Below, one piece after another: positions 12,201 through 55,855 of a stretch of 64,000 bases of DNA. The notes beneath the pieces are model-generated. The model did not search any database. It was not told the origin of the DNA and saw only the letters and a list, made by a program, of their open reading frames with translations. The position numbers and the translations under genes were made by a program. The stretch's first letter is position 1. Each line of letters starts with the position of its first letter. This DNA is from a virus: positions 96,001 to 160,000 of the IMG/VR virus record IMGVR_UViG_3300024312_000003; one strand, 5' to 3'.

Positions 12201-12564
12201 TACTAAAAGAAACTCCAACATTTCTCGTAATAGAGTTGTTTTCGACATACGTTACATACAGCTCATCTCCGACGTCCGCATCGCTGTCATTCATCAGAAT
12301 ATTACCGTTTATGGTGTTATCTGAATCATTACCGCTGAATAAATCATCAATTGCGTTTGGTAATTTGTTTATTTGAAGAAGAGCTTGTTCTAGCGATGAT
12401 ACTCTGCTAAGTAACTCCTCACCACCAATTTGTACAATACTTCCGTCTGGTTTCTTTATGACTAATTTACCAGATACAAAAGAATATCCCATCTCTCTGA
12501 TAAGCATGTCAGTAGGATCTATATTTGGTTTATTTTCTGTAGACCTTGTTAAAAATCTATTCAT
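9277..12564 (-). CDS. Large tail-fibre/depolymerase-like protein 3
   Basis: 1095 aa; shared N-terminal anchor (DPTDMLIREMGYSFVSGKL), GNVLSND repeats, beta-helix repeats (VRNCVIYDNSQGIF, IEGNYL, IRYNWI); divergent C-terminus. Confidence 0.75.
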   Translation of the reverse strand: MNRFLTRSTENKPNIDPTDMLIREMGYSFVSGKLVIKKPDGSIVQIGGEELLSRVSSLEQALLQINKLPNAIDDLFSGNDSDNTINGNILMNDSDADVGDELYVTYVENNSITRNVGVSFSTAYGSMIINRNGSFSFTPNNAARALKIGESVSEFFLCAVEDTSGGRKFSELEVNIIGTNSSPVVSNDTLVSTQGATSQQGNVLSNDSDYESDTLSIVSFTIDGVAGTHSPGTTVIVPDYGNFRLNADGTWIRNRTGSEMSGNIIIRYLVTDGTDSRTGILTIVLQGGLINIDSNPVTTRITGTRTFDVGPDFPYEELDTVPWASMMAGDVVNIHHRALPYKTKFAFAVKATASAPFIINGVTDEDGNRPIIDGRNATTAVGSMPGNDTDIFTTDNQGFGLITIKRRPGTPTSENPEWIIIQNLEIRGAAADASYTNSLGATVQYGFSAGIWIQPTSDVTVRNCVIYDNSQGIFTMSKPGGIGESCQRIKIQYNRIYGNGVNGSGYEHGCYIQGYDALIEGNYLGRGRNGAGGSTYKSRVGKEVIRYNWIESTSRMIDMVHPEFTDAFVEYPDFGIDYVYGNVLINDENLSGNAWRPIHFGSDGSEGGGEWEGSGSAAVNHRKKLYFFSNTYYHNSNYNQADQFFIQLSWPETVCEAWGNVILFDGSIARLNLLYLAGTLNLRGTNLIQGYTTILDASAARGATSSSHAVNRLGTIIASDPVFINKEFHDLSLGAGSPAIDIYSSLPAGIPASVGTDHPVQGQPNPRTNGISLRPTNIGSTDLGALERDPTAPPRVAPVAAQQPALDSLDIYVPGETVSVTDPSWLYNPDTVIRQWQVNTGSGWSDIVGENGPTLLLTASHLGQIRVRYDATNVVGTTVVYSDVRTVTNASAAEIVQIASGSDTWPTPAMTAAVVMSIAPVVGNTLVAFVMNGQSIGDNFGNAWVKRQDISIGYNSAFYQLYTCVVTNTGSNFTVTGTSNVQDTCSVVVYEVAGTYVNSVGDSQGASGVNGEITISATSANQRVIAGFSAGRSWGNEAPTISSPWIVGARLLLSQVDPTHLVAHGVSPDVGNTTLTAVYGGQQYLVKIAVILDPL

Positions 12565-15107: not shown

Positions 15108-15170
15108 GGTAATTTCCTTTTTGAAAATATGTACGAGAGTACACTATTGTGATATGTGTTTAAAAAACTT

Positions 15171-29251: not shown

Positions 29252-29755
29252 TCAGATAACAATAGCTTTGTTAATAACCACATCCTCGACAGGAACATCC
29301 ATATGCATTCCACGCCGACCTGTCTTGACTTTTTCAATTTGGTCAACAACTTCGAAACCGCTGATGACTTTACCGAAAACAGCGTAACCCCATCCTTGCT
29401 GTGTCTCAGACTTGAAGTTCAGAAAATCATTATTGGCTGTATTAATGAAAAACTGAGCCGAAGCAGAATGTGGGTCTGAAGTACGAGCCATTGAAATGGT
29501 GTACTTTTCATTTCCCAAACCATTGTTTGCTTCGTTCTTAATAGGTTCTTTAGATGGAAGTTTATCCTTCATTCCAGAAAGAAAACCACCTGCCTGAATC
29601 ATGAAACCTTTGATGACTCGATGAAAGGTGACTCCTTCATAGAATCCCTTTTCCACATAATCGATGAAATTAGAAACAGAACTAGGAGCTGCTTCTTCAT
29701 TCAGTTCAATTTGGATGTTACCAACATTGGTTTGCAATTCTACAATCTTTGTCAT
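29252..29755 (-). CDS. ppiB: Cyclophilin-type peptidyl-prolyl isomerase (PpiB-like)
   Basis: [49 protein letters not shown]. Confidence 0.95.
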
Positions 29756-29764
29756 TACTATCTT

Positions 29765-30282
29765 TCAGTGAAAAGGAAACGGTTCTCGGATTGACACCAC
29801 GAGGCCAATCTTGACATCAACCCGGCAACCGTCGACTGTTACTTCTATTTGCAAAGATAGGTGATAACTCACCTGTTGTATATAAGGTCACATCTCTTTA
29901 CTGATGCTTCTCCGCTACCTGCAGATAAAGGGCTATTCTAGCTTCTAAGGGAACTGGCATTATTCCCTCCACCGTCAACCAATCACAAGGTAAGTCAACC
30001 ACTAGGGTGTCTCAAAACCAAGCGACCAATTAACACGAATAATCGCATTGCTAATATAAATCAGTATAAGTCAAAATGCGACAAATGACTTTACTTTACA
30101 GGTCGTTTACCATACTAATGTTTCTTCAACATATTCTGGCCTGTGTGACTACGACTCCACTCATATCTCTTATTCCTTTCGTTCCTTATTATGTTGTATC
30201 AGGGAAAATCAGAGCACCAGGAGTAATGGTGGGCTTTTCAAATTAAACAGTTACCTTGTAAAAAGTAACTATCTTGTTCAAG
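29765..30282 (-). ncRNA. Large structured ncRNA candidate of unknown family
   Basis: About 520 nt with no ORF of 60 aa or more in the track; at least eight stems and a pseudoknot; CATATTAC promoter-like motif directly upstream (30286-30293). Confidence 0.6.
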
Positions 30283-30312
30283 TTAGTAATATGTTACTGT
30301 AATGTTTTTTAA

Positions 30313-30768
30313 TCAGCTCACTGTTGGTGAACCCGACATTTTGTTAGCAATAGATCGACACAAATCAAATTCTGAACGATCGTTCTTTGATTGAATAACA
30401 TGAATCATCCAATCTCGAATAATGTCGATTTCAGTTAGTTGAGTAATATGGATAATCGGAATATTCAAACGCTCACAAATCTGAATTTCTGCTTCAATTC
30501 CTTTTGATTCTTTCCAACCATCCATTTGATAGACAAGCATATACTTACAACTAGAAAGCATTGCTTCATCCAATCTACCCCAATTCTTCCAACCGCCTTC
30601 CATGGCATTTGGTGAGTGTTGAATTAGACCAACATTGTGTACAATTGGAGAGATGACGGGAATACCAGCATTAATTAGCTCAACTGCTTTTTCTGCAACT
30701 TGTTTAACTCTGGCTTCTTGAACAGACTTATCTGGATGAGAATATGGTGAAGCTAGATAACCCAACAT
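30313..30768 (-). CDS. DUF1937 / nucleoside 2-deoxyribosyltransferase-like protein
   Basis: YLASPYSHPD...ISPIVHN...GWKESKGIEAEI. Confidence 0.8.
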   Translation of the reverse strand: MLGYLASPYSHPDKSVQEARVKQVAEKAVELINAGIPVISPIVHNVGLIQHSPNAMEGGWKNWGRLDEAMLSSCKYMLVYQMDGWKESKGIEAEIQICERLNIPIIHITQLTEIDIIRDWMIHVIQSKNDRSEFDLCRSIANKMSGSPTVS

Positions 30769-32931: not shown

Positions 32932-33145
32932 AAGCTTTTAGATCAATTAGGCTTTCAAGAACACCCATTAATTCTTCATCTTTTGGTTTAGAATCAAGAA
33001 GAGATTCTAAACCAAGAATATGTTTTTTAATTTGATCTTTTATCTGCCACTCAGGAAACCCAGATTTTAGAAGACAAACGTATGGTGATAGACTTTGACG
33101 GGTTTGTAGATTGTCAATTTTTTTAATTTCTAACAGGAGGCTCAT
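32921..33145 (-). CDS. Small helical protein, paralogue of the previous gene
   Basis: MSLLLE...LLKSGFPEWQIKDQIKKHILGLE. Confidence 0.65.
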   Translation of the reverse strand: MSLLLEIKKIDNLQTRQSLSPYVCLLKSGFPEWQIKDQIKKHILGLESLLDSKPKDEELMGVLESLIDLKAYVS

Positions 33146-33758
33146 TGTCTTTCCTATTCTCTTCTTTTTCACGAATCAATCTACAGACAGTAGTTCTGAG
33201 TCCCGGATAACACTCATGAACACTACCCATCAGCTTAATTCGAGTTTTATTTCTCAATCCAGAATTTGGATCACTGTTACTGGGATCACTCAGATGCTCA
33301 AGATTTCTGTTCTGAGCATATTCGTAAATCTTTGATTTTGGAGTGCAAATCAGCGGGCGAATAACGTTGTTATTTTGATATTCCAGAATTTTAGGAGTAC
33401 CTTGGAAAGTACTCATGATGTACCATTCGACAGCATCATCAAGATGGTGACCTGTGAGTACCATCCTGTCCATGGCTTGAAAGATCTTGTATCTTTCACG
33501 ACTCCAATAAGCTTCCTTTGAACCCGGTCCTTTGAATGCTTCGATTTGTTTAACAAGCAATTCAATACCTAGTTCCTTAGAAAGATTTTCAGCAAACAAC
33601 TGTTCCTCATCGCAGAAATTGCCCCTGTGATGAATAAACAACAACTTAACGTCTACTTTTCTCTTTACTAGCAAATGAAGCAATACAGCAGAATCCACAC
33701 CTCCAGAGAAAGCCAGGTACACTGGTGTATTGATTCGCTTAAAGAAACTAATTTTCAT
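33123..33758 (-). CDS. tilS: tRNA(Ile)-lysidine synthetase-like PP-loop ATPase (catalytic domain only)
   Basis: LAFSGGVDSAVL, ERYKIF, LTGHHLDDAVE, IRPL, DPSN, RNKTR; about 211 aa, lacking the C-terminal domains of bacterial TilS. Confidence 0.85.
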   Translation of the reverse strand: MKISFFKRINTPVYLAFSGGVDSAVLLHLLVKRKVDVKLLFIHHRGNFCDEEQLFAENLSKELGIELLVKQIEAFKGPGSKEAYWSRERYKIFQAMDRMVLTGHHLDDAVEWYIMSTFQGTPKILEYQNNNVIRPLICTPKSKIYEYAQNRNLEHLSDPSNSDPNSGLRNKTRIKLMGSVHECYPGLRTTVCRLIREKEENRKDNEPPVRN

Positions 33759-33804
33759 TTTACAATTATTGTTTATCAATTAGAACAAACTCAAGTCTTT
33801 GAAA

Positions 33805-36429: not shown

Positions 36430-36547
36430 GTTATCTACTAAACCATGGAAGCGTGTGCTTCTTTCCAAATCATAGATGATTGTGGTAAAAAAGTATTTGT
36501 TTTTCCATATCTATCAATATTGTAATATGGTTCTGAAATACTTTTGA

Positions 36548-55110: not shown

Positions 55111-55315
55111 TTCCTAGTCTTTCGCAACTGCTTTGAAAATGGTTTTTGATTGTTAATTTAGCAGACGACTGAGTTACAATTATACATTCTCACCCTTACG
55201 TCAACATATTAAAACAGGCAAAAAAATAAACTTTTATTCACGCAATATCATATTACAATTTATGCTTTTTTAGATAAATTAGGGGCAAATAAAAGGAGGG
55301 AATTCCCTCCTTTTA

Positions 55316-55855
55316 TTATCCTAGTAAACTCTCCATTAATCTTGGAGAACCGTCTTCCATGAGACGAACTGAACCATCTTCCATCAAACGCACATTCTGA
55401 TGTTGTGCTTGGAAATAGAATTCACTTTCAAGCCAAGCAAATGATGCAGAGTTATCTCTTATCTTTATTCGATAAGAGTCAACCATCGATGTATGTAGCT
55501 CATTGAGTATTTCTGAAGGATCAAGATTTAAACCCAAAGCTTCATTGATTTCAGGAAGAACTTCATGGGTAAAAAATGGAACTCTTTGAATTACTACTTT
55601 CTGAATTTCTTCAGCAGGTAATGTGTTCAAAACAGCGAGGCTTAATCGCTTGTATTGGATGTTTTGATTATTGTAGAATTGAAATTGTCTGGGTGTGAAT
55701 GTTAGTTGTGTATTTCTACCATTCGTTCCTACGACAGGGGTTAAATTTGTTAATGTGAAATCTGTGTTGTAATTTAAATTAAGCCCGTTATTCAGGTTAA
55801 TAAGGCTAACTAATCTATCCAGACTTCTTCCGGAATAAGGTTTGGTTCTGGCCAT
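55316..55855 (-). CDS. phiKZ-like virion structural protein
   Basis: SLDRLVSLIN..N...GRNTQLTF...IQYKRLSL...LPEINEALGLNL pattern; C-terminal RLMEDGS tandem repeat. Confidence 0.6.
   Translation of the reverse strand: MARTKPYSGRSLDRLVSLINLNNGLNLNYNTDFTLTNLTPVVGTNGRNTQLTFTPRQFQFYNNQNIQYKRLSLAVLNTLPAEEIQKVVIQRVPFFTHEVLPEINEALGLNLDPSEILNELHTSMVDSYRIKIRDNSASFAWLESEFYFQAQHQNVRLMEDGSVRLMEDGSPRLMESLLG

Follow-up and report, generated by a model that had tools for sequence, protein, structure and literature searches.

The 64,000-nucleotide (nt) stretch of DNA analyzed here, hereafter the window, comprises bases 96001-160000 of a 180.5-kilobase (kb) contig from an uncultured phage (genome G000; IMG/VR record IMGVR_UViG_3300024312_000003). 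We consider it highly likely that positions 29766-30280 of the window, read from the minus strand, are a stand-alone gene for a noncoding RNA (ncRNA) of about 470-510 nt that belongs to a family outside Rfam. An initial annotation of the window had singled out this place as a candidate new class of large phage ncRNA, and that proposal is now supported: the RNA is not in Rfam, its pairing covaries in about seven lineages, contigs from RNA libraries cover it and stay inside the gap between the neighboring genes, and a promoter-like motif lies on its 5′ side.

A conserved gap without an open reading frame

The gap that holds the RNA (29756-30312, minus strand) is bounded on its 5′ side by a gene for a DUF1937 protein of 151 amino acids (aa; 30313-30768, minus strand) and on its 3′ side by a gene for a 167-aa cyclophilin-type prolyl isomerase (29252-29755, minus strand); all nearby genes also lie on the minus strand. 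Its G+C content is 0.40-0.42, as compared with about 0.30-0.35 in the surroundings, and there is a single copy of the RNA per genome. The initial annotation had described the stretch as free of open reading frames (ORFs), and this is borne out: the gap contains no conserved ORF on either strand, with many stop codons in each of the three minus-strand frames. The gaps of its relatives carry 6-13 stops in every sense frame, and there the sole sizeable antisense ORF (30076-30246, 56 aa) is either disrupted or shifted in frame.

The RNA is kept in 12 distinct sequences that represent about seven giant-phage lineages of river and wastewater origin. Through homologues of the two flanking proteins, a gap of nearly equal length was located at the same place in L002, L003/L004, L005, L006/L007/L009, L013 and L014. 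When the gaps of close lineages are aligned, the mean column identity is 77% and long blocks are invariant, while the flanking proteins diverge, DUF1937 to 60-85% identity and the cyclophilin to 74-96%. More distant cyclophilin homologues yielded the lineage L011/L012/L020 and another, L037, and an invariant 20-mer led to a further copy in another phage, G001 (261 kb, 95% complete). Overall RNA identity drops to 39-53% between the main groups. Specifically, the 3′ 200 nt are universal across lineages and the 5′ part varies by lineage; the 5′ 360 nt of the G001 version (L016:1504-1870) cannot be aligned with the other lineages and are likewise ORF-free. The RNA of the G001 phage is nearly identical over six samples, with only seven differing positions in the 5′ 360 nt, and this set of near-identical RNAs adds nothing to covariation.

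Other searches set the limits of this distribution. A search for relatives of the protein encoded downstream of the RNA in G001 turned up only the same phage. None of 50,697 GenBank phage records was matched in BLASTN searches that used the window, L012 and G001 versions of the RNA. Neither flanking protein, taken singly, found anything in scans of viral contigs, and exact-pattern scans of viral contigs and of 185,579 prokaryote genomes with the invariant blocks also returned nothing; the same kind of scan of JGI metagenomes returned only L009, which is identical to L006. One candidate, L010, proved to be a chance match of the invariant-block pattern that sits inside a coding region.

Compensatory changes support the fold and the strand

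As the initial annotation had suggested, the folding energy was compared with that of shuffled sequences. The minimum-energy fold of the minus strand has z = -2.0 and that of the plus strand -0.8, which is only modest evidence, and the case for a structured RNA rests on covariation. On five sequences, RNAalifold predicts 136 pairs, 29 of which show compensatory double changes. We then counted changes in alignment A9, a seven-sequence MAFFT alignment made from sequence only and not fitted to structure, using the consensus fold plus a pseudoknot. In A9, 98.4% of cells form standard pairs, and both sides have changed in 26 of the 115 pairs, as compared with 1-4 when the partner is slid by one to three columns; none of 500 shuffles reached the observed value.

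The distant members were reached with a covariance model, R1, that covers the 3′ 200 nt only and was built from seven sequences of the four closest lineages. With R1, the L012 type and L037 reach about 125 bits, and the score of G001 is 61.8 bits (E = 2e-17). The model fails to recognize L033-L036, which a looser two-block pattern had brought up and which are chance matches. Two low-scoring model matches are noise: one of 15.6 bits at 55288-55484 on the plus strand of the window, antisense within a coding ORF, and one of 14.9 bits at 165267-165354 of G000. Across the 12 distinct sequences, aligned in A8 and A10 with the rows of distant members fitted to the model, 96.4% of cells in the 3′ domain pair and 23 of 46 pairs are altered on both sides, as compared with 2-5 in slid controls. 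Because many pairs pass through G•U, which would be C•A on the opposite strand, the RNA is read from the minus strand.

RNA-library contigs are confined to the gap

Three metatranscriptomes from three studies, two from rivers and one from wastewater, each yielded one contig from the gap. These contigs are 399 nt (29822-30220, no differences to the window), 255 nt (29815-30069, no differences) and 372 nt (29822-30183, seven differences) long. They are 98-100% identical to the window and lie wholly inside the gap, and none reaches either flanking gene. In the RNA libraries, the only matches to the flanking genes are 32-77-nt fragments of cyclophilins from other organisms; we used these gaps in flank coverage only jointly with the contig boundaries. 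Because carried-over DNA would cover the flanks equally, this pattern indicates that the RNA is far more abundant than the messenger RNAs of its neighbors.

These observations bear on the idea that the gap is a decayed gene or a neutral spacer whose structure arose by chance. Although a single-sequence folding z of only -2.0 would suit such an origin, the gap keeps long invariant blocks while the flanking proteins diverge, its compensatory changes lie far above both controls, and RNA libraries cover it selectively. We regard this explanation as effectively refuted.

Architecture of the RNA

All features described below lie on the minus strand. A conserved core of about 470 nt (29774-30243; alignments A1, A2 and A9) begins with the 5′ strand of helix P1 and extends through the terminal hairpin. 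Every helix sequence pair listed in the initial annotation is present in the window where it had been placed, and comparison with the relatives separates those that belong to the shared fold from those that do not. The outermost, the leader hairpin AGUUAC/GUAACU (30249-30270), lies between the promoter-like motif and the core; it is present in the window, L002, L005, L013 and L014, cannot form in L003 and L006, and is missing from the L012 and G001 types, and it is thus a feature of the window's close lineage only. In the consensus fold, the body of the RNA is closed by P1, in which 30234-30243 (AUUUGAAAAG) is paired to 29847-29856 (CUUUGCAAAU). When the window, L002, L003 and L006 are folded individually by minimum energy, the helix forms again; an A•G mismatch within it becomes U•G in L003 and L006, and its equivalent in L020 is 8 base pairs (bp) long (CUUAUUGC:GCGAUGAG). 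Because this helix is invariant within close lineages, it has moderate support.

The 5′ domain (30098-30231) contains the well-supported hairpin P6/P7 (30109-30140) and a helix, ACAG:CUGU, between 30141-30144 and 30098-30101; the remainder has rival pairings. In A9, both sides have changed in three of four P6 pairs and two of five P7 pairs, and ACAG:CUGU is replaced by GCAG:CUGC or, in the L012 lineage, by UCUAG:CUAGA. The pairing CAACATA/TATGTTG (30127-30196) drawn in the initial annotation does not hold up, as changes in its 5′ arm are uncompensated; a local hairpin, ATGTT/AACAT (30118-30132), covaries instead. One rival pairing in this domain, CCUGGUG:CACaCAGG, becomes CGGGACU:AGUCCCG in L012, and both 5′-domain folds fit the close lineages as well as the L012 lineage. 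The hairpin CACCA/TGGTG (30215-30231), also from the initial annotation, belongs to one of these folds and is ambiguous; it competes with the other pairing and is weakened in two lineages. Followed by CUCUGAUUUU, this hairpin scores as terminator-like, with a U run, inside the RNA. A conformational switch in the 5′ domain is conceivable.

Downstream of the 5′ domain, the hairpin AGUCA/UGACU (30069-30090) covaries in two of its five stem pairs (AGUCA:UGACU, AACCA:UGGUU, AGCCA:UGGUU), and its loop (GUCGCAUU, 30075-30082) pairs with AAUGCGAU at 30042-30049 to form a pseudoknot. This pseudoknot, like the hairpin, had been proposed in the initial annotation, and 7-8 bp of it are kept in all lineages examined: a G•U pair becomes A-U in L003, and an A-U pair is swapped to U-A in the L012 lineage and L037. 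A competing local hairpin of 30042-30049 with 30032-30038 is less well preserved in the L012 lineage. The central region that follows (29970-30041) is variable and is the least conserved part of A9; it holds small helices at 29996-30009 and 29970-29992, and its seven-pair helix shows only one-sided changes, via G•U.

The universally conserved 3′ domain starts with the hairpin GAGGGAAU/GUUCCCUU (29947-29969, loop AAUGCCA), which corresponds to the AGGGAA/TTCCCT pairing of the initial annotation and is changed on both sides in three of eight pairs across lineages (in G001 it reads AGCGGG:CUCGUU). Three further hairpins follow: CUGC/GCGG with a 5-nt loop (29911-29925; both-side change in four of five pairs, 100% of cells pairing), GCAUC/GAUGU with loop AGUAAAGA (29890-29907; three of five pairs) and AGGUGA/UCACCU with a 4-nt loop (29859-29874; five of six pairs). 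The 3′-terminal hairpin of about 22 pairs (29778-29833) is changed on both sides in eight of 22 pairs, with 98% of cells pairing, and carries a 29-nt insertion at its tip in G001. The last two of these hairpins were already in the initial annotation, the terminal one as ACGGTT/AACCGT, and both gain support from these changes. The 3′ domain of G001 is about 57% identical to that of L037 (A10).

Between P1 and the terminal hairpin lies the unpaired junction AGAAGUAACAGUC (29834-29846), where conservation is strongest: it consists of GAAGU, one A/G position and ACAGUC. These positions are invariant in 12 of 12 distinct sequences (A8 and A10), G001 included, and the invariant run extends into the hairpin as GACGGUUGCC. 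On this pattern, we see the junction as a candidate functional site. In addition, the loop of the first 3′ hairpin (29955-29961) is complementary over 4-6 bp to the loop of the terminal hairpin (29803-29808) in every lineage. This suggests a loop-loop kissing contact, which might form within one molecule or between molecules; we offer it as an idea and not as a result.

A recurrent promoter-like motif and a link to transfer RNAs

On the 5′ side of the RNA, at 30286-30315 on the minus strand and overlapping the stop codon of the DUF1937 gene, there is a promoter-like motif that consists of an A-rich block, TTACAG and CATATTAC, the last at 30286-30293. The motif's general form is an A-rich ATGAAAAA, about 6 nt, TTTCAGA, 1-2 nt and CATAT-N-AC. 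The 180-kb genome has about 15 copies, each of them on the minus strand: in the window at 15156, 20059, 30293, 36529 and 43273, and in G000 at 12411, 46840, 63863, 71577, 79469, 80842, 82544, 160973, 163032 and 163328. Fourteen of 15 are intergenic and lie 24-156 nt before the next ORF; the RNA's own copy lies 538 nt before the next ORF, and the copy at 36529 of the window precedes a cluster of transfer RNA (tRNA) genes. A scan with the sigma-70 consensus found no convincing promoter upstream of the RNA on the minus strand. The motif is unlike that consensus and may point to a phage-specific transcription program. An outer helix UUACU:AGUAA that would use the motif CATATTACT was dropped, as recurrence of the motif as a promoter-like element accounts for its conservation. 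At four copies (71577, 160973 and 163032 of G000, and 20059 of the window), a conserved hairpin of TTGGAATAAG, a loop and CTTATTCCAA lies within a few bases downstream of the motif, and this hairpin may represent a 5′ leader or an operator element common to them.

The initial annotation had credited the RNA with a promoter-like motif of its own. This is correct for the window, and AACATATTACTA is invariant in the four closest lineages, but the motif is not universal, as it is absent where tRNAs precede the RNA. In the L012/L011/L020 lineage, tRNA genes run directly into the RNA, which is the last unit of the tRNA array: L012 has one tRNA-Gly(CCC) (230-304), L020 has three tandem tRNAs (125-369), and L011 starts inside a tRNA remnant at the contig end. 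An 8-bp hairpin lies between tRNA and RNA in L012 and L011 and is not found in L020. Elsewhere the tRNAs are more distant; in the window they lie 4-6 kb upstream of the RNA, and G001 has a five-tRNA cluster on the RNA's own strand, 5 kb upstream.

That the RNA directly abuts tRNA genes in one lineage, has an invariant unpaired junction as active sites do, and contains a pseudoknot could be taken to mean that it is a catalytic or RNA-processing RNA, for example one that cleaves itself or matures adjacent phage tRNAs. We consider this improbable, as the RNA matches neither RNase P, nor group I or II introns, nor any ribozyme family, and most lineages have no adjacent tRNA. The 255-399-nt RNA-library contigs, which span most of the RNA unbroken, argue weakly against self-cleavage.

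At the other end, a U-rich tail (29766-29777, minus strand) follows the terminal hairpin, directly ahead of the ribosome-binding site and start codon (ATG) of the cyclophilin gene. Its T content is high in the window, L002 and L005 and lower elsewhere, and in G001 a separate strong terminator stands about 15 nt after the RNA, before the next gene. These features suggest a model for the production of the RNA. In the window's lineage, transcription would start a few bases after the motif CATATTAC; in the L012/L011/L020 lineage, the RNA would be co-transcribed with the tRNA array and freed by tRNA processing. The terminal hairpin and U-rich tail would then end and protect the transcript.

The downstream gene is informative with regard to a second interpretation, in which the cyclophilin gene is controlled in cis by this sequence as its very long 5′ leader, for example a riboswitch, attenuator or thermosensor. 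The RNA ends about 20 nt before the cyclophilin start codon, the cyclophilin gene comes next in the window and eight relatives (L002, L003, L005, L012, L013, L014, L020 and L037), and the terminator-like hairpin with its U run at 30215-30231 lies within the RNA, as would befit a leader. However, the downstream gene is not constant: L006 encodes a 104-aa protein there, L011 has a 95-aa ORF in between, and G001 encodes a 200-aa protein of unknown family. Because the downstream gene varies and G001 has a strong terminator between the RNA and the next gene, the leader interpretation is disfavored. The RNA-library contigs end short of the cyclophilin gene, with no shared transcript seen, and about 500 nt with more than 15 helices far exceeds any known leader. 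We therefore judge a leader to be very improbable.

Weighing the evidence for an independent RNA gene

What characterizes structured ncRNA genes in general is found here: there is no conserved ORF, compensatory changes exceed those in controls, and a discrete transcript is seen, in the form of contigs only. Several points weigh against the interpretation of the sequence as an independent gene with the fold and ends described above. The folding energy, taken alone, is weak evidence. The family is small and includes several close relatives, so that the cell counts overstate the number of independent compensatory events, and in A8 and A10 the distant rows are fitted to the model. The fold of the 5′ third is ambiguous between its two rivals, and the loop-loop complementarity is short and lacks a clean double change. 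Assembled contigs show neither the strand, the true ends nor the level of a transcript, and an RNA library can hold some DNA. That the motif CATATTAC is the promoter we infer on good grounds, and the U-rich tail at 29766-29777 is the probable 3′ end; both assignments were read from sequence. Finally, the function proposed below is the weakest step and a guess.

Genomic setting and possible function

Among the features that reach the gathering threshold in a scan against Rfam 15 there are only tRNAs, a transfer-messenger RNA (tmRNA) and a group I intron elsewhere; the tmRNA of the window is of the beta-proteobacterial type. A short TilS-like gene (PF01171) lies a few kb from the RNA in two unrelated carriers (L002:1211-1846 and, in G001, L025:2100-2735). 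The other genes around the RNA in G001 differ from those in L002, and the TilS-like gene is common to both, which hints at a conserved translation-related neighborhood. An ORF of the window, 33123-33779, is likely the counterpart of this gene. The window's cyclophilin shares 70-75% identity with the PpiB proteins of Aquabacterium and other Burkholderiales, which points to the host group and to a fairly recent capture of a host gene. Because of this closeness to Burkholderiales PpiB and the beta-proteobacterial-type tmRNA, the phage probably infects a member of the Burkholderiales. River and wastewater samples contain DNA of this phage group.

With regard to function, we tentatively suggest, by analogy with the large phage RNAs GOLLD and ROOL, that the RNA might act in trans as an abundant structural or scaffold RNA tied to the translation-supply region (tRNAs, tmRNA, TilS). 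The invariant junction would then be its working surface, and the loops at 29955-29961 and 29803-29808 would make a tertiary or inter-molecular kissing contact. The main alternative, which we think unlikely, is a decoy or anti-defense RNA that sequesters a host nuclease or an RNA-binding defense protein and complements the phage's tRNA set, itself regarded as a counter to tRNA-cleaving defenses. Such a role would suit the RNA's position among tRNA, tmRNA and TilS genes and its abundance relative to its neighbors, and tRNA arrays are discussed as anti-defense units (PMC12803027). However, the RNA does not resemble tRNA, ribosomal RNA or any antitoxin RNA, no defense partner is known, and the proposal is drawn purely from context.

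More broadly, and with similar reserve, the scaffold suggestion can be extended: this could be a third independent class of large ornate phage RNA, beside GOLLD and ROOL, carried by giant phages of freshwater Betaproteobacteria in the part of the genome that holds tRNAs, tmRNA and TilS. Its conserved 3′ domain, with the junction, terminal hairpin and loop-loop contact, would form the basis of a multimer made of RNA only, or of a ribonucleoprotein, and the target would be the translation or RNA-defense machinery of the host. To our knowledge, ornate conserved bacterial or phage RNAs of more than 400 nt with unknown function are very few, namely OLE, GOLLD, ROOL and HEARO. Such large RNAs have each led to unexpected biology, such as RNA-only cages and guide RNAs. 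The present RNA adds a new family of large ornate RNA from a different host group, with covariation support, expression evidence and a defined invariant site. A link to phage tRNA islands, so far unexplained, is a further shared trait, and the RNA thus gives a separate opportunity to ask why large structured RNAs accompany the tRNA sets of giant phages. Its length of about 470 nt makes it a compact target for cryo-electron microscopy.

Comparison with known RNA families

The initial annotation had recognized no family in this RNA, and the comparison with Rfam 15 agrees: cmscan against all families at E ≤ 10 gave no match for the window version and only noise of 10-20 bits for the diverged L012 and G001 versions. 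The RNA region scores with no Rfam 15 family, including RNase P, tmRNA, group I and II introns, OLE, HEARO, raiA, 6S and riboswitches; the annotation had likewise seen no group I, RNase P, tRNA or tmRNA signature, and no such model scores in the region. We also found no paper describing such an RNA.

The known RNAs that invite comparison are GOLLD and ROOL. GOLLD RNAs, which first came to light in lake metagenomes, are carried by phages and prophages, in many cases in or next to tRNA islands, have many helices and pseudoknots, and are of unknown function; their 3′ part is universally conserved and their 5′ part is variable (PMC12286853). ROOL RNAs are likewise found in phages and prophages near tRNA islands, are very abundant, contain multiple pseudoknots, and are of unknown function (PMC12286853). 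The new RNA might therefore be a highly diverged member of one of these families, too distant for the Rfam models: like them, it is phage-encoded, abundant, several hundred nt long and near tRNA islands, and it shares with GOLLD the universally conserved 3′ part and variable 5′ part (PMC12286853). However, three diverged versions of the RNA match no Rfam family at E ≤ 10. The GOLLD model (RF02032) finds nothing in G000 or G001 at this threshold and gives weak matches in five control genomes. The ROOL model (RF03087) found nothing in a dedicated search in which the controls were equally silent, so that this result is uninformative alone; the all-Rfam scan is also without ROOL. On this evidence, we hold membership in either family to be highly unlikely.

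The closest analogues of the new RNA are GOLLD and ROOL, and it is not a member of either, the test against ROOL being the weaker. As in GOLLD, the 3′ part (200 nt) is conserved and the 5′ part is variable, and the RNA keeps company with tRNAs, abutting them in L012 and L020 and lying 4-6 kb from them in the window and 5 kb in G001. Unlike GOLLD, of which many members exceed 800 nt, it is about 470-590 nt long; it does not match the GOLLD covariance model at E ≤ 10, and the likely hosts of its phages are Betaproteobacteria. It resembles ROOL in its size (the ROOL model has 574 positions), its phage setting near tRNA islands and its pseudoknot, but its helix order and conserved motifs bear no visible relation to those of ROOL. 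Both ROOL and GOLLD self-assemble as RNA-only homo-oligomeric cages, a 14-mer in the case of GOLLD; in the new RNA, the one feature that speaks to such assembly is the conserved loop-loop complementarity of 4-6 bp. Transcripts of phage tRNA clusters, as in T4-like and giant phages, form a third point of comparison. The same promoter-like motif precedes the new RNA and the tRNA cluster, and in one lineage the RNA ends a tRNA array; however, it is not tRNA-like, is about seven times as long as a tRNA, and has its own fold of several domains.

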